In this document: piece by piece, positions 515-23,654 of the stretch | Position numbering within the stretch: the first letter of the stretch is position 1 | How the letters are laid out: every line of letters begins with the position of its first letter | Source of the DNA: a virus | Direction: 5' to 3' (one strand) | Virus genome (UHGV): UHGV-1462696 | DNA: 23,864 nt | The notes under the pieces: model-generated | The model's database searches: none | What the model saw: the letters and a program-made list of their open reading frames with translations, nothing else | What the model was told of the DNA's origin: nothing | Position numbers and translations under genes: made by a program

Positions 515-525
515 GCATGGTACTA

Positions 526-540
526 TTACCACAACGGTAA
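526..540. promoter_or_regulatory. TTACC-N5-GGTAA palindromic motif (variant, spacer ACAAC), 18 nt upstream of the terminase small subunit start
   Basis: Read directly; one of six TTACC-N5-GGTAA sites in the window. Confidence 0.4.
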
Positions 541-2626: not shown

Positions 2627-2627
2627 T

Positions 2628-3368
2628 TTATTGCTTATTTTTCACGGCTTCAGCAATCATTCTCTCAGCCTGTGATGTATATGTTTTTCGCAAGGGTTCA
2701 TGGCCCATATGCAATACGATACTTTCCTTTTCTTTTTCCTTTAATTCTTGTATGAGATTATTTATTTTGGCCTCCCTATCTTCAAGCATTCTGGCGGACT
2801 TTTCTGCCTCAATCTTTAACGCTGCAGCCACTGATTGCATGTTTTCCAGCTTCTTATTCAATTCCAAAACCTTATCGGAGAGCCTATCTCTTTCCGACGT
2901 TAGCTCACCCATCCTGGCCTGTGACTCCGTAATTCTTTCCTTCATAGCCTGTATGTCTTTTTCGGCGCCAGTCTTAACTTTGTCGTATGTCACATCGTGC
3001 TTTGCCTTCAGGCGCTGCAGGCGTGTGGCGCGATGAATGCGCTTGGCCTTCCGGTGGTTCTCTATCGAATCGTAATTATCAAGAGGTTTGGCTTGCCACT
3101 TTGAAATCACGTTGTTGATCCAGGGCATGCCGCCGCACAGGATTATTGCTGAAACACATGGGAATGCTAATACCGTTTTCCAACTGCTATTGCTGGAAAT
3201 GTAGGTGATCTTGTCGATGATGCTGGAGTCGCTGAGGAGTAAGTATAAAATCGACTTCCAGTTAAAGGCGCACCATGACAGTGCGAACGCTCCAAACACT
3301 GGATTTCTGACCCTTTGCGCAGCGGTATTAACGGTTGAAGATAGGTATTCTTTAAGTGATTCAAGCAT
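2628..3368 (-). CDS. Membrane-anchored coiled-coil protein of unknown function (accessory; candidate abortive-infection / superinfection-exclusion effector)
   Basis: 246 aa; two hydrophobic segments in the N-terminal ~90 aa (FGAFALSWCAFNWKSILYLLL; VLAFPCVSAIILCGGMPWI) followed by ~130 aa of heptad-like charged sequence; AT-rich relative to flanks by eye; AAGGG SD upstream of ATG at 3368; opposite strand to the late operon. Confidence 0.6.
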   Translation of the reverse strand: MLESLKEYLSSTVNTAAQRVRNPVFGAFALSWCAFNWKSILYLLLSDSSIIDKITYISSNSSWKTVLAFPCVSAIILCGGMPWINNVISKWQAKPLDNYDSIENHRKAKRIHRATRLQRLKAKHDVTYDKVKTGAEKDIQAMKERITESQARMGELTSERDRLSDKVLELNKKLENMQSVAAALKIEAEKSARMLEDREAKINNLIQELKEKEKESIVLHMGHEPLRKTYTSQAERMIAEAVKNKQ

Positions 3369-3398
3369 GTCCAGGCCCTTTTAGGTTTTTTTCTGATT

Positions 3399-3413
3399 CT
3401 ACCTTTAAGGTAA
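3399..3413. promoter_or_regulatory. TTACC-N5-GGTAA-type palindrome (CTACC-TTTAA-GGTAA) in the promoter of the 246-aa gene
   Basis: 31-45 nt upstream of the ATG at 3368; on the gene strand the site reads TTACCTTAAAGGTAGAAT, so the -10-like TAGAAT overlaps it. Confidence 0.5.
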
Positions 3414-3480
3414 TCTTCGGTCATTATGAAAAACGTATCCCTATGAGGGGATAATGTCGTTGATATCCTCTGATGAGGAT

Positions 3481-3910: not shown

Positions 3911-3934
3911 AAAAAAATGCCCGGCGAACCGGGC
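3911..3934 (-). terminator. Intrinsic terminator on minus strand (GCCCGG-ttcg-CCGGGC followed by ATTTTTTT), immediately upstream of the RBS of the 123-aa gene
   Basis: Read directly from the reverse complement of 3911-3934. Confidence 0.6.
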
Positions 3935-4010
3935 GAACTGGAAGCAATGAGTTATGCCTTCCGTGGCTGTACGTGTTTACAGCATGAAGTCATCGCAATG
4001 GCGTCCTGCT

Positions 4011-4054
4011 GTAAAAAGGGCGGTGATAGTCCTTCAAGGGAAACTATCACCGCC
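4011..4054 (-). terminator. Long hairpin (12-bp stem GGCGGTGATAGT/ACTATCACCGCC, 12-nt loop) followed by CTTTTTA on minus strand; probable tRNA terminator
   Basis: Read directly; about 44 nt downstream of the tRNA 3' end. Confidence 0.5.
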
Positions 4055-4097
4055 AAGCACCTGGAACTTCTGGCATCACGGTCCTTAGGCGTGATTC

Positions 4098-4174
4098 TGG
4101 CGTGGCATGCAGGATTCGAACCTGCGACCAACCGCTTAGAAGGCGGTTGCTCTGTCCAACTGAGCTAATGCCAC
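4098..4174 (-). tRNA. tRNA-Arg (anticodon UCU), phage-encoded
   Basis: Reverse complement gives a 77-nt cloverleaf: acceptor GTGGCAT/ATGCCAC, D-arm GCTC-AGTTGGACA-GAGC, anticodon stem ACCGC/GCGGT with loop CTTCTAA (anticodon TCT), T-arm GCAGG-TTCGAAT-CCTGC, discriminator G, encoded CCA. Confidence 0.85.
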
Positions 4175-4496: not shown

Positions 4497-4511
4497 TTAC
4501 CTGAAAGGTAA
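4497..4511. promoter_or_regulatory. TTACC-TGAAA-GGTAA palindrome (17-mer identical to the site at 23536) in the divergent region between the tRNA and the portal module
   Basis: Read directly; 91 nt upstream of the ATG at 4602. Confidence 0.55.
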
Positions 4512-4601
4512 TAATTTGTGCGTTAAATGTCAACTTCCTACGATAAATAAATCATATGTGGTTAAATTGGTAATAATTTAATTGCGTACGGAGTCATTGA
4601 T

Positions 4602-18117: not shown

Positions 18118-20666
18118 TGGCAGCAAACGAATTTTTGACGCAGTGCGAGCGCAGTGTAAATGCTGCCGCTGGTCGCGAGCTTTCTTCCGATGAGATGGAG
18201 TCGCTGGTGCGTGACATGAACGACACCACTAGGCGAATTCTGGCGACCAATGAGGCGCTGTCTCTGGAAGAGGCCGCGATGCGCGCAGCGGAAGAACTGA
18301 GCAATGCCGATATGCTGGCAAAACAGATTGAGGCTCGCAATAAGGCAATCAACGCCCGTATTGCCGCACAACGACTTAGAGAGCTTCGTACTATCTGGAA
18401 AGACCGCCCGGATATCGGGCTTGAAGCAATGCTGGTTGGCCGCAACGATGCGCGTACCGGCGCCCGCCGGTCGGTATCTTCGGAGGTGGCGCAACTGCGC
18501 GGCAAGTATCATTCCGGTATCAACTACGATTTTGACCGTGCCGGACTGGTGCAATTCATCGCCAGCGGCAGCAATGACCGGGAAATTGCCGATGCAATGT
18601 GGCGCATAGGGCGCGGGCAGTCAACTGACGGTATGACAAAGCAATCCGTAAGCGCTGCACAAATCATCATGAAATGGCAGGAAACTGCGCGCATTGATGA
18701 GAACCGCGCCGGGGCATGGATACGCAAAGAGCCGGGCTATATAGTTCGCCAGTCACACGACATCATGAAGATCCGCGCCGCAGGTTATGAAGCATGGCGA
18801 AATGCTATTCTCCCGCGCCTTGATGAGCGCACTTTTGACGGCGTGGCTGACCGCGAGCAGTTCATGCGTAACATTTATAACGGGCTGGCTTCCGGCGTGC
18901 ATCTTACATCTGAAAAGCCCGATTGGATGAATGGCTTTAAGGGATCGGCGAACGCAGCTAAACGCGCCAGCCAAGAGCGAATTTTGCACTTCAAAGATGG
19001 TATCTCGTGGCACGAGTACAACCAGCAATTCGGCACCGGCAGCCTGCGAGAAGCGCTGTTTGGTGGCTTAAACAGCGCTGCCCGCACAACGGGCATGATG
19101 CGCGTACTGGGCACTAACCCACAGAACATGTTTAAGTACCTGACGGACGCCATTGCTGAAGATATCAGCAAATCCGGAAGACCGGCAGCGTTGGCTGACT
19201 ACATGACGAAGGTGCGTCGCATTAACCGTACCGTAATGCCGCAGGTTGACGGCTCGCTAAATATTCCTGGCAGCGTAGGCTGGGCCAATGCGTCGGCGGC
19301 TGTACGCGGCTGGTTGCGTATGAGCCAACTTGGTGGTGCGGTAATCTCATCGTTTAACGACGTGCCTATCGCCGCTACCGAGATGCGCTACCAAGGGCAG
19401 AATTTTATGCAGGCGTTGCTTGGTGCTATGAGAGGCCGCTTCACGCGTTACAACAGCGCGGAGCAGAAAGAGATCCTTTCCTCTATCGGAGTTTATTCCG
19501 ACTCCATGACGCAGGAAATCATCCGGCGCATATCTGGTGATGACACGCTGAATGGAAAGCTTGGTCGCGCGCAGCAGCTTTTCTTTAAGTACAACCTCAT
19601 GAACTTCTGGACCGAGAGCGGTCGCAACAGCAACGCCATGATGATAACCAACTGGCTTGCAAAGAATGCTGACCAGTCTCATGCGCGGCTACCGGAAGAC
19701 CTGCGACGCGTGCTGGATCTGCACGGTATTGGCGAACGTGAGTGGGAAATTTTTCGCAACATGGACATGGCCGATAGCGAAGGTCGTAAGTTCATGACGA
19801 CCAGCGGCATCCGCGGCGTGCCTGACGAAGTGATTGCCGGTTATGTAGAGAGTAAGGGGATCAAACCAACGCAGCGCGCTATCGCTGACGCACGCGATCA
19901 ATTGGAAGGGCAGTTGCGCGGCTACATCCTTGACCGCCTGAATATCGCCATGTCAGAGCCTGGCGATCGCACGCAGGCGTTTATGAAGATGGGCACGGTG
20001 CCAGGAACGGTGGCTGGGGAAGCAATACGATTCGCTGGTCAGTACAAATCGTTCACTGCAAGCTTCATGCAGAACGTACTAGGACGCGAAGTATTCGGGC
20101 GTGGTTATATTCCTGCTGGGCTTGGTGAGTCGAAAACCGGATCGCTGACGAATGCGCTGCTACGTAACGGGAAGGGGGCTTTCCTTGGTGCTGCAAACCT
20201 CTTTGTCTGGGCGACTATGTTTGGTTATATCTCCATGCAGTCAAAACTCATGCTGAAAGGGCAAACACCACGCCCGGCAGATGCCAAGACGTTTCTCGCA
20301 GCCGCATCTCAGGGGGGCGGTCTTGGCATCTTGGGTGACTTCATGTTTGGCGAGGTCAACCGCATGGGGGCCGGGCCGGTTACGTCGCTAATGGGGCCAG
20401 CAGCATCGAACGCTGACAGCATTATCACGCTGCTCCAGCAGACCACGAGAGGGGATGCAGATTTGGGTGACTGGTATCGCACGGCACTTGACAATACGCC
20501 ATTCCTCAACGTGTTCTGGCTTCGTACGGCGATGAATGGTTTAATATTGAACCGGATACAAGATGCCCTTGACCCAGGCTCTCTTGAGCGTTATCAGCGC
20601 CGTGTTGAGCGTGAGCAGGGTAACGACTTTCTGATCCCACCATCGCAGTTCATGCTAGGTAAATAA
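18117..20666 (+). CDS. Putative internal virion / ejection protein (about 850 aa)
   Basis: Large ORF, TGATG overlap with upstream gene; hydrophobic C-terminal segments (FLGAANLFVWATMFGYI) consistent with a membrane-interacting ejection protein. Confidence 0.5.
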   Translation: MAANEFLTQCERSVNAAAGRELSSDEMESLVRDMNDTTRRILATNEALSLEEAAMRAAEELSNADMLAKQIEARNKAINARIAAQRLRELRTIWKDRPDIGLEAMLVGRNDARTGARRSVSSEVAQLRGKYHSGINYDFDRAGLVQFIASGSNDREIADAMWRIGRGQSTDGMTKQSVSAAQIIMKWQETARIDENRAGAWIRKEPGYIVRQSHDIMKIRAAGYEAWRNAILPRLDERTFDGVADREQFMRNIYNGLASGVHLTSEKPDWMNGFKGSANAAKRASQERILHFKDGISWHEYNQQFGTGSLREALFGGLNSAARTTGMMRVLGTNPQNMFKYLTDAIAEDISKSGRPAALADYMTKVRRINRTVMPQVDGSLNIPGSVGWANASAAVRGWLRMSQLGGAVISSFNDVPIAATEMRYQGQNFMQALLGAMRGRFTRYNSAEQKEILSSIGVYSDSMTQEIIRRISGDDTLNGKLGRAQQLFFKYNLMNFWTESGRNSNAMMITNWLAKNADQSHARLPEDLRRVLDLHGIGEREWEIFRNMDMADSEGRKFMTTSGIRGVPDEVIAGYVESKGIKPTQRAIADARDQLEGQLRGYILDRLNIAMSEPGDRTQAFMKMGTVPGTVAGEAIRFAGQYKSFTASFMQNVLGREVFGRGYIPAGLGESKTGSLTNALLRNGKGAFLGAANLFVWATMFGYISMQSKLMLKGQTPRPADAKTFLAAASQGGGLGILGDFMFGEVNRMGAGPVTSLMGPAASNADSIITLLQQTTRGDADLGDWYRTALDNTPFLNVFWLRTAMNGLILNRIQDALDPGSLERYQRRVEREQGNDFLIPPSQFMLGK

Positions 20667-20668
20667 TA

Positions 20669-21229
20669 ATGAAGGCAATTATATTTTTTGTTTCAATATT
20701 GATGTCTGCATTTTCTTTTGCAGGGCAAAATGTTAAATGCGAACTTCAATACTTTGGAGATAACGATAAATTTAAGGTAACTCAGTTTTCTTTTATGGGG
20801 ATTCCATCTGATTCATACCTTTATACCTGTGCCGACTGTGGAGGCATCCAGATAAACGTGTTCCCATCTATTCAGACTGTTGCTTCCTACTCATTTGAAA
20901 ACAACATTGATTTCGAAAGGAAAATCAATGCTGAATACAACAGAAAAGACATAGCTAAACTTGAGATGGAAAACGTTACTCAAGGCGGGAGAATAAAATA
21001 TTCAATCACCGATACTGGTTTGGCAGAGTTTTACCCAGAGGGCAAAAAGATAAGCTACCTCTACTTTTTAGCCAAGCAACAAAATGGTAAAGAACAAGTA
21101 GGTTATTCAGGATTTGTTACCTCTAACGGGGATAAGTCATGCTCAATTATTGCGACATATCCAGGAAAAGAAATTTCTTTTCTGGGAAGTAAATCTTTAA
21201 GCTACTTTATGAATCATATATCAATGTAG
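20669..21229 (+). CDS. Secreted or periplasmic hypothetical protein (moron)
   Basis: Signal peptide MKAIIFFVSILMSAFSFA then GQN, no lipobox; strongly AT-rich codon usage unlike the flanking virion genes; starts 2 nt after the upstream stop, so likely co-transcribed with late genes. Confidence 0.6.
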   Translation: MKAIIFFVSILMSAFSFAGQNVKCELQYFGDNDKFKVTQFSFMGIPSDSYLYTCADCGGIQINVFPSIQTVASYSFENNIDFERKINAEYNRKDIAKLEMENVTQGGRIKYSITDTGLAEFYPEGKKISYLYFLAKQQNGKEQVGYSGFVTSNGDKSCSIIATYPGKEISFLGSKSLSYFMNHISM

Positions 21230-21304: not shown

Positions 21305-21329
21305 CACAAAAAAGCCCGCAACGCGGGCT
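21305..21329 (-). terminator. Intrinsic terminator on minus strand (AGCCCGC-gtt-GCGGGCT followed by TTTTTTGT), overlapping the stop of the YafO-like gene
   Basis: Read from the reverse complement. Confidence 0.6.
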
Positions 21330-21874
21330 TATTCCTTCCATTTATCAGAAAAAAGATCTTCTTCTAAAGGCATTGGTTCTGTTTTTGTTTTCTCAAAGAA
21401 TTGATAACTGATAGTGATTGCTTCCTCTTTAAACTCTTCTTGCTCAGTTATGTTGTGGGCATCTGCGTCAACAAAAAACATAACCAGCGCATCACGATTG
21501 TGATTTACCGAATAAACTAAAAAGCAATCACTTGTTGGTATGCATTTTACTTGCACAGACGCTATATTTTTCCATGCATCCCAAGATGATTTTTTACCAG
21601 TGTGTTTTTTATCACTATCTTCTGGAATATAGTCTTGGTTATCGACATGAGTATGCCTGACATTTAGTTTAAGCATTTCTGTCGGACGAGCAAATGCAGC
21701 ATCTTTACCAAGAGATGGATGGTATCCCGTTTTCCAATACTGGGTAAAGGCATCAGATACTTTCTTCAGCTCAAGATCAGATGCACAAAGGGCCGAGAAA
21801 TTTTGCGTATGCAATACTCGACCCTTATATCTGACAATTTGATTTTTATCATTCTGCGACGCAGACGAACTCAT
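21329..21874 (-). CDS. YafO-like toxin candidate (ribosome-dependent mRNA interferase family) with acidic C-terminal tail
   Basis: Motifs FTQYWKTGYHPSLGKDAAF, NVRHTHV and CFLVYSVNHNRDALVMFFVDADAH parallel YafO segments as recalled (FISYKRDGVLPDIFGRDALY; VAHIHL; AHLVYCQGAFDEQAWLLIAILKPEPH); AT-rich; AAGGA SD before ATG at 21874; the track ORF extends to 21901. Confidence 0.5.
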   Translation of the reverse strand: MSSSASQNDKNQIVRYKGRVLHTQNFSALCASDLELKKVSDAFTQYWKTGYHPSLGKDAAFARPTEMLKLNVRHTHVDNQDYIPEDSDKKHTGKKSSWDAWKNIASVQVKCIPTSDCFLVYSVNHNRDALVMFFVDADAHNITEQEEFKEEAITISYQFFEKTKTEPMPLEEDLFSDKWKE

Positions 21875-22088: not shown

Positions 22089-22103
22089 TTACCCTTGAGG
22101 TAA
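22089..22103. promoter_or_regulatory. TTACC-CTTGA-GGTAA palindrome adjacent to the predicted promoter of the small-ORF / YafO-like unit
   Basis: Read directly; 61-75 nt upstream of the ATG at 22028. Confidence 0.5.
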
Positions 22104-22175
22104 TAGTACGCTATTCACCCACAGTCTGCAATCTGTACAGAATTATTTAAAGGCACATCCCTGTGCCGCCGCCCG

Positions 22176-22886
22176 TCAGAAGAACCCAGCCTTGTCGTTG
22201 ATGTACTCCGCGTGAGTCTGGATATCACGCAGGCATTTGCTCACACCAACGATGTAGCAAAACATGGTGGTCAGCTCCGCCGCCGCGCCCGATACATCGT
22301 GCCCGTCTTCCTGCAACTGGTTCAGCAAATTCATCAGCAGTGAGTTCTCCGTCAGGCCGAGAACACCAGACGGAGAATGAATCAGACTGCGGTAGCCGGG
22401 CTTCAGTGGGGCACTGTAGGTTTTGTTCTCTATCTTCATTGCCTGCATCACTGCTGATGCTGTGGCGTTGGCTACCTGGTCGGCAACCATCTTTATGCGT
22501 TCTTCCTGCGGGAGCGAGTTTTTAATGTAACTTCCGGTGCGGCGGATCTGAGGAAGAACCTCACCTGTAACCCATTTACGAAAGCGGTAGGGGATAGTGC
22601 CTGGTGTCACCGCATCGCGGCAGCGGAGGATCAGTGTGTAGAGGCCTGACTCGGAGATGATGTTGATCTCTTTTACTCGGCTGTCAAAAATTGCACGATG
22701 TTCATGCCCTATGTTGAACATAGACCTTTCATCATCATCCAGTTTTTCAAGTGCTTGGGTGACGTTTTGGATACGCAGCGCACTACAAACGTCTTGGGCT
22801 ACAAACCATGGTTGGCCATCGATAATGATGGAACGGATAGGGTTAACAGATTCAAATTTGAAGATGGCAGTTTGAGCATTAGCCAT
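22176..22886 (-). CDS. ant: Phage antirepressor-like protein (N-terminal Bro-N domain plus C-terminal Ant-type domain)
   Basis: N-terminal AIFKFESVNPIRSIIIDGQPWFVAQDVCSALRIQNVTQALEKLDDDE is a typical Bro-N signature; ATG at 22886 with GGAG SD is preferred over the GTG at 22901 used by the track. Confidence 0.75.
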   Translation of the reverse strand: MANAQTAIFKFESVNPIRSIIIDGQPWFVAQDVCSALRIQNVTQALEKLDDDERSMFNIGHEHRAIFDSRVKEINIISESGLYTLILRCRDAVTPGTIPYRFRKWVTGEVLPQIRRTGSYIKNSLPQEERIKMVADQVANATASAVMQAMKIENKTYSAPLKPGYRSLIHSPSGVLGLTENSLLMNLLNQLQEDGHDVSGAAAELTTMFCYIVGVSKCLRDIQTHAEYINDKAGFF

Positions 22887-23041
22887 GGTGGTTATCTCCA
22901 CTTAGTGATTTTAATCACCACCGCAACGCCAATTACTGGTGGTGAACTGGACAAGGTTGGCGTACCGGCCTAAGTGGTACCGGCGTCCTTTCGGACCCCT
23001 GCCCAGCCCACCATAATTCGGATATGGCTGTGCTTAACGCA

Positions 23042-23065
23042 TAAAAAAACCACGTCTGGCGTGGT
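23042..23065 (-). terminator. Intrinsic terminator on minus strand (ACCACG-ccaga-CGTGGT followed by TTTTTTTAT)
   Basis: Read from the reverse complement; downstream of the truncated ant paralog. Confidence 0.6.
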
Positions 23066-23155
23066 ATGCGCCACTTAGTAACTCGGGACGCCAATCCCGG
23101 CACTGGATTTTGCCAGTGCCCGATTACTATGGCACAAGAGGAGTGCGATGTAAAT

Positions 23156-23170
23156 TTACCGCAAAGGTAA
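23156..23170. promoter_or_regulatory. TTACC-GCAAA-GGTAA palindrome embedded in the 30-nt loop of a 10-bp inverted repeat (AGAGGAGTGC 23137-23146 / GCACTCCTCT 23177-23186)
   Basis: Read directly. Confidence 0.5.
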
Positions 23171-23201
23171 ATATAAGCACTCCTCTTGGTAATTTCAAAT
23201 C

Positions 23202-23459
23202 TTATCTGGTTTGTTTTCGTAATTGTTCGGCACAATAGTCGAGATGTGTTTGCAGATCCCGCATAGACATCTGTGAGCTGGTGACGTAGTTAATCAGTGC
23301 AGTCAGTTCGGCAAGTGGGCCATCGACATTAAATCCATCCTTATCGAGATCCCGGAGTAATTTCATCAAGTGCGATCCCTCCACCAGTGACCTGACGCCT
23401 CCCGGCGTGTGAATCCTTTCGGTAAATCCGTCTTCCAGTGGATAGTGATACTGCTGCAT
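23202..23459 (-). CDS. Stand-alone paralog of the antirepressor C-terminal domain (about 85 aa)
   Basis: ERIHTPGGVRSLVEGSHLMKLLRDLDKDGFNVDGPLAELTALINYV...RDLQTHLDYC aligns with SLIHSPSGVLGLTENSLLMNLLNQLQEDGHDVSGAAAELTTMFCYI...RDIQTHAEYI in the ant product; ATG at 23459 with GGAG SD; the track ORF begins at 23525. Confidence 0.6.
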   Translation of the reverse strand: MQQYHYPLEDGFTERIHTPGGVRSLVEGSHLMKLLRDLDKDGFNVDGPLAELTALINYVTSSQMSMRDLQTHLDYCAEQLRKQTR

Positions 23460-23535
23460 CTTATCTTCTCCATGTAATAACTGTATATTTATACAGTAGC
23501 AAATAATTTGTTTGCTATCCAGCACGTTTTGCGAA

Positions 23536-23550
23536 TTACCTGAAAGGTAA
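23536..23550. promoter_or_regulatory. TTACC-TGAAA-GGTAA palindrome in the divergent region between the ant paralog and the tail fibre gene
   Basis: 17-mer TTACCTGAAAGGTAATA identical to the site at 4497; 105 nt upstream of the tail fibre ATG. Confidence 0.55.
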
Positions 23551-23654
23551 TATCTGTTCGTATTTATGGGTTATCTATCCATATGTGGTTTTTTAGGTAA
23601 TAGAATGATCGGATATGCGGCGCAACGGGTGCTGCGACTATCTGGAGATTTAAC

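Follow-up and report, generated by a model that had tools for sequence, protein, structure and literature searches.

Genes and RNAs of the window

The window, i.e., the whole stretch of DNA that was analysed, comprises 23,864 nucleotides of the viral genome UHGV-1462696. According to megablast, it represents the late (morphogenesis) half of an epsilon15/phiV10-like temperate podophage of the genus Uetakevirus. Its shared parts are approximately 97% identical to the Escherichia phages TL-2011b and phiV10 (megablast), and chromosomal prophages of E. coli cover up to 93% of the window, the best match showing 97.7% identity. The gene map was obtained by transfer from annotated relatives together with Pfam and PHROGs matches. 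It leaves 8.0% of the window as intergenic DNA and contains the following genes and RNAs:

101-439: gene of a 112-aa protein, labelled "transcriptional regulator" in PHROGs (phrog_536), immediately upstream of terS
after the 112-aa gene: terS, followed by terL
2628-3368, minus strand: 246-aa accessory gene
between the 246-aa gene and tRNA-Arg: gene of the Gp49/Sf6-gene-66 family
4098-4174, minus strand: tRNA-Arg(UCU)
up to 21229: gp3, portal, capsid, and tail genes
21329-21874, minus strand: region with the Pfam match YafO_toxin, part of a YafO-like toxin unit that includes a 59-aa ORF
22176-22871, minus strand: gene of a Bro-N protein (Pfam Bro-N, E 9e-20) with a C-terminal Ant-like domain
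22935-23018, minus strand: C4 antisense RNA (Rfam, 66 bits, above the gathering score)
23043-23119, minus strand: isrK-like RNA (Rfam, 67.2 bits, above the gathering score)
23202-23459, minus strand: ant, 85 aa, orthologue of SPC32H Ant, matching this anti-repressor (PDB 5D50 chain E) over its full length (E 1.4e-46)
23656: start of the tailspike gene

Approximately 22 nt upstream of the ant start codon, at 23481-23496, we find an exact match to the LexA box, CTGTATATTTATACAG, which is conserved in six genomes. A second gene of the window is related to ant: Residues 150-223 of the Bro-N protein are 43% identical to the Ant of the window (E 2e-16), and the Bro-N/Ant-fusion protein is regarded here as a putative second antirepressor.

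A palindrome in the gaps before transcription units

The window carries five exact copies of the palindrome TTACC-N5-GGTAA, which start at positions 526, 4497, 22089, 23156, and 23536. A first, sequence-only reading of this DNA had reported six copies. The coordinates of all six are correct on rescanning, but the sixth copy, 3399-3413, reads CTACCTTTAAGGTAA (CTACC...GGTAA) and carries one mismatch at its first base. From the base composition, 0.022 exact copies are expected in the window, in agreement with the earlier estimate of about 0.02, and none appeared in 100 dinucleotide-preserving shuffles, so that a chance origin of the palindrome is rejected. Moreover, TTACC-N5-GGTAA ranks first among all palindromes of the type 5-N(0-11)-5, in the window as well as in every Uetakevirus genome examined.

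Two more sites match the palindrome with one mismatch. The site 544-558, TTACCACGGTGGTTA, is intergenic and lies 18 bp from site 526. The site 21031-21045 is located inside an ORF of 186 aa and is probably a chance match, since 0.65 one-mismatch sites are expected in the window.

As had been proposed, the six sites reported at first are all intergenic, in a window with 8% intergenic DNA. The same holds for site 544, and the probability of finding five out of five exact sites there is about 3e-6. The six gaps at the head of a transcription unit all contain sites; a scan of the transferred gene map detected none in the intra-operon and convergent gaps of the window.

The half-sites are 10 bp apart from centre to centre, i.e., one helical turn, and the full operator form can be written as ATTACC-nnWnn-GGTAAT. 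In a matrix built from 49 distinct sites, A/T is preferred at the central base and on the flanks of the palindrome. The form TTACCNNNAAGGTAA, which had been ascribed to five of the six sites, is common to three of them (4497, 23156, and 23536), or to four if the first-base mismatch of 3399 is tolerated. The identity over 17 nt between 4497-4513 and 23536-23552 is confirmed. Likewise, the palindrome does not fit the LexA pattern CTGT-N8-ACAG, as had been noted.

The sites and the promoter elements around them are listed below, where Rep denotes the lysogeny repressor of this phage group:

489-506: terminator-like hairpin, just upstream of the extended -10-like element of terS
518-526, plus strand: inferred terS promoter with the extended -10-like element TGG-TACTAT, the last T of which is the first T of the operator
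526-540: predicted Rep operator before terS, exact, TTACCACAACGGTAA; also present in phiV10, TL-2011b, Tyrion, SPC32H, and Kp4865-1
544-558: possible auxiliary low-affinity operator, TTACCACGGTGGTTA, overlapping the terS Shine-Dalgarno sequence GGTGG
3399-3413: variant of the predicted Rep operator in the promoter of the 246-aa gene, within the spacer and the -10 of ATGACC-17-TAGAAT (3424..3396, minus strand)
4497-4511: predicted Rep operator in the divergent tRNA-Arg / gp3-portal region, exact; half-sites invariant in an alignment of six genomes
4533..4528, minus strand: perfect -35 hexamer TTGACA, 16 nt from operator 4497, with the -10 TACCTT inside the operator
22089-22103: predicted Rep operator at the promoter of the 59-aa ORF / YafO-like unit, TTGCAG-17-TACTAT (22131..22103, minus strand), which ends on the first T of the operator
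23156-23170: predicted Rep operator at the distal promoter of the isrK/C4/Bro-N-Ant module, TTGAAA-17-TATATT (23198..23170, minus strand, 10 of 12 matches), which ends on the operator
23154..23126, minus strand: proximal promoter-like sequence TTTACA-17-CATAGT
23536-23550: predicted Rep operator in the divergent ant / tailspike region, exact; half-sites conserved in the alignment, with a TCACC variant in phiV10 and TL-2011b

The distance between the palindrome and promoter hexamers is not arbitrary. Of 112 distinct oriented flanks from seven genomes, 15 have a -35-like TTGnnn hexamer at a distance of exactly 22 nt ahead of TTACC, and eight have it at exactly 16 nt; every other distance from 8 to 39 nt is represented by zero to three flanks. 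The 22-nt register corresponds to a promoter with a spacer of 17 nt, in which the last T of the -10 is the first T of the operator, and the operator covers approximately -7 to +8. Within the window, this register is seen at 22089 and 23156, and 526 shows the matching -10 register together with an extended -10. The 16-nt spacing to TTGACA is that of the 4497-type site, where it is kept in seven out of seven genomes (eight distinct flanks); TTGACA and TACCTT would here constitute a leftward promoter toward tRNA-Arg. The layout of promoter and operator at 3399 is the same as at PR of the relatives. Thus, at four sites (526, 3399, 22089, and 23156) the operator overlaps the -10/+1 region or the spacer of a sigma-70-like promoter, and with 4497 included, RNA polymerase and Rep would compete for one stretch of DNA at five of the six sites. 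Transcription at these promoters is predicted to start near 533 on the plus strand and near 3389, 4498, 22096, and 23163 on the minus strand.

The two divergent regions are arranged differently on their rightward sides. Site 4497 lies approximately 70 bp upstream of the gp3/portal start, and site 23536 is located upstream of candidate promoters on both sides, toward ant and toward the tailspike gene. Toward the portal and tailspike genes, the best rightward promoter candidates are situated 45-70 bp past the operator, in conserved blocks ending in GGTAATAAT and GGTAATAGAAT, respectively. At this distance, simple occlusion does not explain their control. A partner operator at a distance of 62 bp, as seen in the relatives at PL and before p45, was not found near the sites of the window.

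In the case of 23156, the sequence-only reading had placed the site in the 3' region of the small ant gene. It does lie downstream of ant, but functionally it belongs to a promoter directed toward isrK, C4, and the Bro-N gene, both RNAs being located between the operator and the latter gene. The start predicted from the proximal promoter-like sequence, at about 23119, coincides with the 5' end of the isrK match and may be active in the lysogen. From the positions of both promoters it follows that operator 23156 shares sequence with the distal promoter and directly adjoins the -35 of the proximal one.

The meaning of site 544 is less clear. One-mismatch sites of this type are present in phiV10, Tyrion, and epsilon15 and are degenerate in SPC32H and Kp4865-1, and the site may simply reflect the ribosome-binding site.

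As a separate observation, a second conserved palindrome, AACCnTATnTGGTT, occurs beside many of the operators and in late promoters. Compared by eye with the consensus sequences, this element fits neither sigma-54 nor CRP.

The repressor Rep and competing explanations

The immunity region lies outside the window, and a comparison with it had been proposed along with the sequence-only reading. The complete phiV10 and TL-2011b genomes both carry the palindrome between the repressor gene and the divergent cro-like gene. Two copies just past the repressor gene flank a promoter with the consensus TTGACA. The palindrome also occurs after the cro terminator, a pair of copies precedes the next early operon, and late-region copies are found at positions matching those of the window. 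The pattern recurs in epsilon15, SPC32H, the Enterobacter phage Tyrion, the Klebsiella phages BUCT711 and Kp4865-1, and an E. coli 4/4 prophage. In all eight relatives, two to three sites lie between rep and the divergent cro-like gene, and two to three sites just past rep flank the TTGACA promoter, such that the same palindrome forms OR- and OL-like clusters on either side of the repressor gene.

The palindrome is strongly enriched in these phages. Complete relatives carry 8-11 exact sites per genome versus approximately 0.04 expected; no exact site was detected in 9 kb of flanking host DNA. Furthermore, 80 IMG/VR loci, which were retrieved with the recognition helix of Rep as search pattern and all encode a 100% identical Rep, contain 513 exact sites in 1.21 Mb (approximately 445 times the expectation) with 62 different spacers. 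The Cobetia phage Carin1, which shares the structural genes and lacks Rep and Ant, has no site even if one mismatch is allowed.

The sequence-only reading did not recognise the motif as a known operator. There is, however, a database annotation to this effect: The GenBank entry of epsilon15, AY150271.2, holds seven features of the type "protein_bind, repressor, lysogeny" with the sequence (A)TTACC-N5-GGTAA(T). Three of them are orthologous to sites of the window, namely 12-27 to site 526, 2931-2947 to site 4497, and 19895-19911 to site 23536. The syntenic positions are kept as well, i.e., before terS, before gp3/portal, and between ant (epsilon15 gp19) and the tailspike gene. Our motif scan also finds three sites in the interval from rep to the cro-like gene of epsilon15, which AY150271.2 leaves unannotated. 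As far as can be told, the annotation of the repressor sites is itself a prediction. The motif thus is an already predicted operator of this phage group. Full-text searching of the literature gave nothing specific on this motif or on Uetakevirus operators.

The repressor in question is well described in a relative. The phiV10-type repressor aligns over its full length with the Rep of SPC32H (PDB 5D50 chain A, E 4e-42). As far as reported in papers citing the original work, the SPC32H Rep consists of an N-terminal DNA-binding, a middle dimerisation, and a C-terminal tetramerisation domain, and binds palindromic sites as a tetramer, with the paired DNA-binding domains coming from different dimers. 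The same papers describe that it is disassembled by tetrameric Ant. The presumed recognition helix, NLVNRW, is invariant in seven Reps with an overall identity of 43%, and its invariance parallels that of the half-sites across phages of E. coli, Salmonella, Enterobacter, and Klebsiella. In the alignments upstream of the portal and tailspike genes, the ten half-site bases stand out as invariant islands between variable flanks. The half-site is kept identical in the more distant Klebsiella phages and is shared by all relatives found.

In near-identical prophages and contigs, rep is located approximately 6 kb upstream and thus outside the window. The overlapping relatives are 97-100% identical, and this very phage presumably carries rep, too.

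Taken together, we propose that the TTACC-N5-GGTAA palindromes are operators of the phage's own lysogeny repressor Rep, a member of the epsilon15 gp38 / SPC32H Rep family, and assign this reading a probability of roughly 0.85. All features of an epsilon15/SPC32H-type Rep operator set that were compared are found: the palindrome form and the orthologous annotated positions in the window, the operator clusters around the repressor gene in eight relatives, and homologues of Ant in the window and of Rep in near-identical prophages and contigs. Binding is predicted on these grounds, and we infer from sequence comparison both that Rep binds at these particular sites and the direction in which each of them acts. 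The earlier view that one dimeric regulator acts on morphogenesis and accessory genes alike holds insofar as a single symmetric regulator fits the promoter sites; the Rep of SPC32H, on the other hand, is reported to be a tetramer. As to the identity of this regulator, the 112-aa protein had been named as a candidate, and Rep, encoded some 6 kb upstream, is the better one.

The 112-aa protein leads to another explanation, according to which the palindrome is chiefly the site of a different phage regulator, either the 76-aa Cro-like protein or the 112-aa protein as an activator of late genes, and Rep recognises something else. A phyletic comparison does not separate the three candidates: both proteins co-occur with Rep in every motif-bearing genome, and both are absent from Carin1. 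In addition, the 112-aa gene directly precedes the first late operon and bears its regulator label from PHROGs, and the -35 hexamers of the late promoters in the window are poor, as is typical of promoters that depend on an activator. Against this, rep is flanked on either side by clusters of sites, which is the classic OL/OR layout, most of the sites at promoters cover -10/+1, the position of a repressor and not of an activator, and the annotators of epsilon15 gave them to the repressor. The invariant recognition helix of Rep with its invariant half-sites also speaks for Rep, and the 112-aa protein has no match to a DNA-binding domain in Pfam or NCBIfam. We therefore judge a different principal regulator to be unlikely. 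The Cro-like protein, in turn, likely binds these sites in addition to Rep, rather than instead of it, because Cro and CI use common operators in lambda-type switches.

The accessory cassettes of this lineage shed further light on the sites. Compared with phiV10, the window has an insertion at 2627-3446, which comprises the 246-aa gene along with its promoter and its operator. This module recurs in two IMG/VR contigs with an identical CTACC site, and one of them also carries rep and operators. TL-2011b contains an inserted extra gene, with an operator of its own, precisely where the 23156-type operator ends. Both cases suggest that accessory cassettes of this lineage come with Rep operators. 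They could also be taken as a hint that the palindromes mainly serve as boundary sequences for recombination in mosaic exchange, with no regulatory role: The sites lie at module borders, the inserted segment has its site approximately 34 bp from the right junction, and TL-2011b diverges from the window exactly where the 23156-type operator ends. This explanation is highly improbable in our judgement. It accounts neither for the fixed register of 22 nt or 16 nt with the -35 hexamers nor for the OR/OL clusters, and only the ten half-site bases are constrained, the spacers being free (62 variants). Self-contained cassettes would in any case be expected to have junctions close to promoters, and those at operators may at most be a by-product of cassette structure or of microhomology.

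A role of the motif as RNA hairpin in antitermination, processing, or termination can practically be dismissed: Its stem of 5 bp and loop of 5 nt have the dimensions of lambda boxB, and 23156 is found at the tip of a long hairpin with an outer stem of 12 bp (RNA dG -31 kcal/mol), but the isolated hairpins are weak (-3.3 to -6.8 kcal/mol), the A/T-rich loops are unconserved (62 variants, only the central base being limited to A or T), the stem never co-varies and is fixed in sequence, the sites are found in both orientations relative to transcription and lie at the inferred starts or upstream of them, and no U-tract follows them. Fixed half-sites, free spacers, and the lack of covariation argue for base-specific contacts between protein and DNA and not for an RNA stem. 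An assignment to the nut/boxB elements is rejected as well, given the variable loops, the invariant stem, and the weak hairpins.

Predicted regulation and known systems

If the sites are Rep operators, two N-terminal helix-turn-helix domains of a Rep tetramer would pair on each palindrome. In the prophage state, Rep on these sites would silence nearly every transcription unit, beyond the early PL and PR operons. At 526, 3399, 22089, and 23156, it would presumably occlude RNA polymerase, and at 4497, the operator would cover the -10 of the conserved leftward promoter on the side of tRNA-Arg. Such a silencing is compatible with observations on ZX5, where overexpression of the repressor lowered the holin and endolysin mRNAs by more than 99.9%, an effect that could be indirect; the paper contains no operator mapping.

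Induction would proceed as described for SPC32H. DNA damage would take LexA off the box at 23481-23496 and allow Ant to be made, and Ant would disassemble the Rep tetramer, such that all operators are vacated at once. For the Bro-N-fused Ant paralogue, we favour a reading in which it stays silent under Rep until the LexA-controlled Ant acts, and then would provide positive feedback. From the sequence comparisons as a whole, Rep probably silences the late operons and the three accessory units of this E. coli prophage directly, and all of them would be freed jointly when Ant is made after DNA damage.

More tentatively, and with clearly less confidence, both palindromes may be read jointly, with Rep as a genome-wide master gate and a second regulator acting on AACCnTATnTGGTT to time late expression. 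If this were true, every unit, i.e., terS, portal/tRNA, the tailspike gene, the lysis cassette, and acquired cassettes, would have a Rep operator in a fixed promoter register, the disassembly of Rep driven by Ant would fire all units simultaneously, and a new cassette would be silent in the lysogen only by bringing or evolving an operator.

From a practical point of view, the sites may be used to predict which prophage genes are silent in the lysogen, e.g., the YafO-like toxin unit, the 246-aa gene, and the second antirepressor, and they could be of use in engineering reporter phages of the phiV10 type.

Several known systems resemble this arrangement to a varying degree. The operators of lambda CI and Cro are likewise two-fold symmetric sites of approximately 17 bp for a helix-turn-helix repressor and cluster in groups of two to three on each side of the repressor gene. 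The TCACC variant half-site, found in phiV10 at 20877 and 24692, equals the core of the lambda half-site. However, the spacer between the half-site cores measures 5 bp here versus 3 bp in lambda, and sites occur here beyond OL and OR. The repressor is inactivated by an antirepressor here and by RecA-stimulated self-cleavage in lambda.

In phage P1, the operators of the C1 repressor are spread over the genome and gate many operons, including Op51 at immI (c4-icd-ant). The immI operon begins with a C4 antisense RNA and has tandem promoters, one of which is under C1 control. This is similar to the window, where a C4 RNA and an antirepressor-like gene are located behind an operator-bearing promoter. 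The P1 operators, however, are asymmetric sequences of 17 bp and the proteins are unrelated, whereas the site of the window is a true palindrome; we see an analogy of design and not membership. The stoperators of mycobacteriophage L5 are repressor sites outside the immunity region as well, located in short intergenic gaps throughout the genome. They are asymmetric, with 13 bp, oriented with transcription, and block elongation, whereas the symmetry of the sites in the window and their phasing with promoter hexamers indicate that initiation is controlled. The asymmetric type of site that is common to P1 C1 and L5 is not the one seen here, and the resemblance to both is functional only.

The closest system is that of epsilon15 and SPC32H (PDB 5D4Z and 5D50), which agrees with the window in the palindrome, the genus, the syntenic positions, the Rep and Ant homologues, and the LexA box before ant. 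Compared with epsilon15, the window has three added sites, at the 246-aa gene, the YafO-like unit, and the isrK/C4/Bro-N-Ant module, all of which are units absent from epsilon15. The motif as such is already known as a database annotation and is consistent with a structurally characterised repressor/antirepressor system; new here are only the three extra instances at accessory units of this prophage.

Putative operator pairs and operator variants

In the relatives' genomes, the Rep operator (the palindrome TTACC-N5-GGTAA, putative site of the lysogeny repressor Rep) occurs in pairs at two promoters. The early promoter PL, beside rep, and the promoter before p45 are each flanked by such a pair in every genome, with a spacing of 62-63 bp, i.e., six helical turns. 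This spacing would suit a single Rep tetramer that joins both sites via a small DNA loop.

Operator pairs (positions in the respective genome)
phiV10: 31953/32015 and 35070/35132
epsilon15: 32555/32617 and 35907/35969

The same pairs were also observed in TL-2011b, SPC32H, Tyrion, BUCT711 and Kp4865-1. No partner operator at this distance was found near the sites of the window.

Two variants with one mismatch are conserved as well. TCACC...GGTAA has the O-antigen modification gene on one side and the lysis cassette on the other (phiV10, 24692; SPC32H, 24782; Tyrion, 26408), and TTACC...GGTAT is located upstream of int in the attP/int region (phiV10, 26870; genomes L003, 135, and L008, 68). These variants may represent weaker operators of the lysogenic-conversion and integration promoters. 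In the window, a further one-mismatch match, TTACCCAGAGGGCAA at 21031-21045, is situated within a 186-aa ORF. Although the prophage of E. coli 4/4 has it too, chance is its likeliest origin, since 0.65 one-mismatch sites are expected.

A second recurrent element and the accessory region

Besides the operator, a second palindrome-like element, AACCnTATnTGGTT, recurs with 4-9 copies per genome versus 1-1.7 in shuffled sequences.

Copies of the AACCnTATnTGGTT element
Window: 4550-4563, 23198-23211, 23577-23590
phiV10: 24736, 33132
Tyrion: 21435, 26452, 34215, 35385, 37308

Most copies, including all closest matches, are intergenic, and most, again with every closest match among them, adjoin Rep operators or fall within the promoter regions of the portal, tailspike and lysis genes. 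Upstream of gp3, the block CATATGTGGTTAAATTGGTAATAATTTAA is unchanged across six genomes.

Compared to phiV10, the segment 2627-3446 of the window is an insertion that comprises a 246-aa gene together with its own promoter and operator, with the right junction at approximately 3447. The gene product belongs to phrog_4780, and its coiled-coil/SMC-like matches are weak. At 3917-4168 (plus strand) lies an 83-aa ORF that the annotations of phiV10 and TL-2011b list as a hypothetical protein. The ORF overlaps the tRNA-Arg(UCU) gene (4098-4174, minus strand) in antisense and is therefore doubtful; probably it is not a genuine gene.

Ant-type proteins and their predicted control

The region around ant, the gene of the 85-aa antirepressor Ant, carries the following elements:

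23481-23496: perfect LexA box CTGTATATTTATACAG; the start codon of ant follows about 22 nt downstream
23137-23190: long inverted repeat CAAGAGGAGTGC...GCACTCCTCTTG, with the operator at 23156 at its tip
23043-23119, minus strand: isrK Hfq-binding RNA, Rfam match above the gathering score
22935-23018, minus strand: C4 antisense RNA, Rfam match above the gathering score
22176-22871, minus strand: Bro-N protein

The LexA box is kept in six genomes, and its perfect, conserved sequence implies that the antirepressor would be under SOS control. Folded as RNA, the inverted repeat reaches a dG of about -31 kcal/mol; no U-tract is present at 23137-23190. The repeat was found in phiV10 and E. coli 4/4, and is absent from Tyrion and Kp4865-1.

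The C-terminal domain of the Bro-N protein matches the small antirepressor Ant with 43% identity (E 2e-16). By this likeness, the phage has two Ant-type proteins, each with a different predicted control. A promoter-like site (23154..23126) has its predicted start at 23119, which is the 5' end of the isrK match. The Bro-N gene is located downstream of both RNA matches (22935-23119), and this order of isrK/C4 RNA and Bro-N gene resembles the immI region of P1 or the IsrK module of Gifsy-1.
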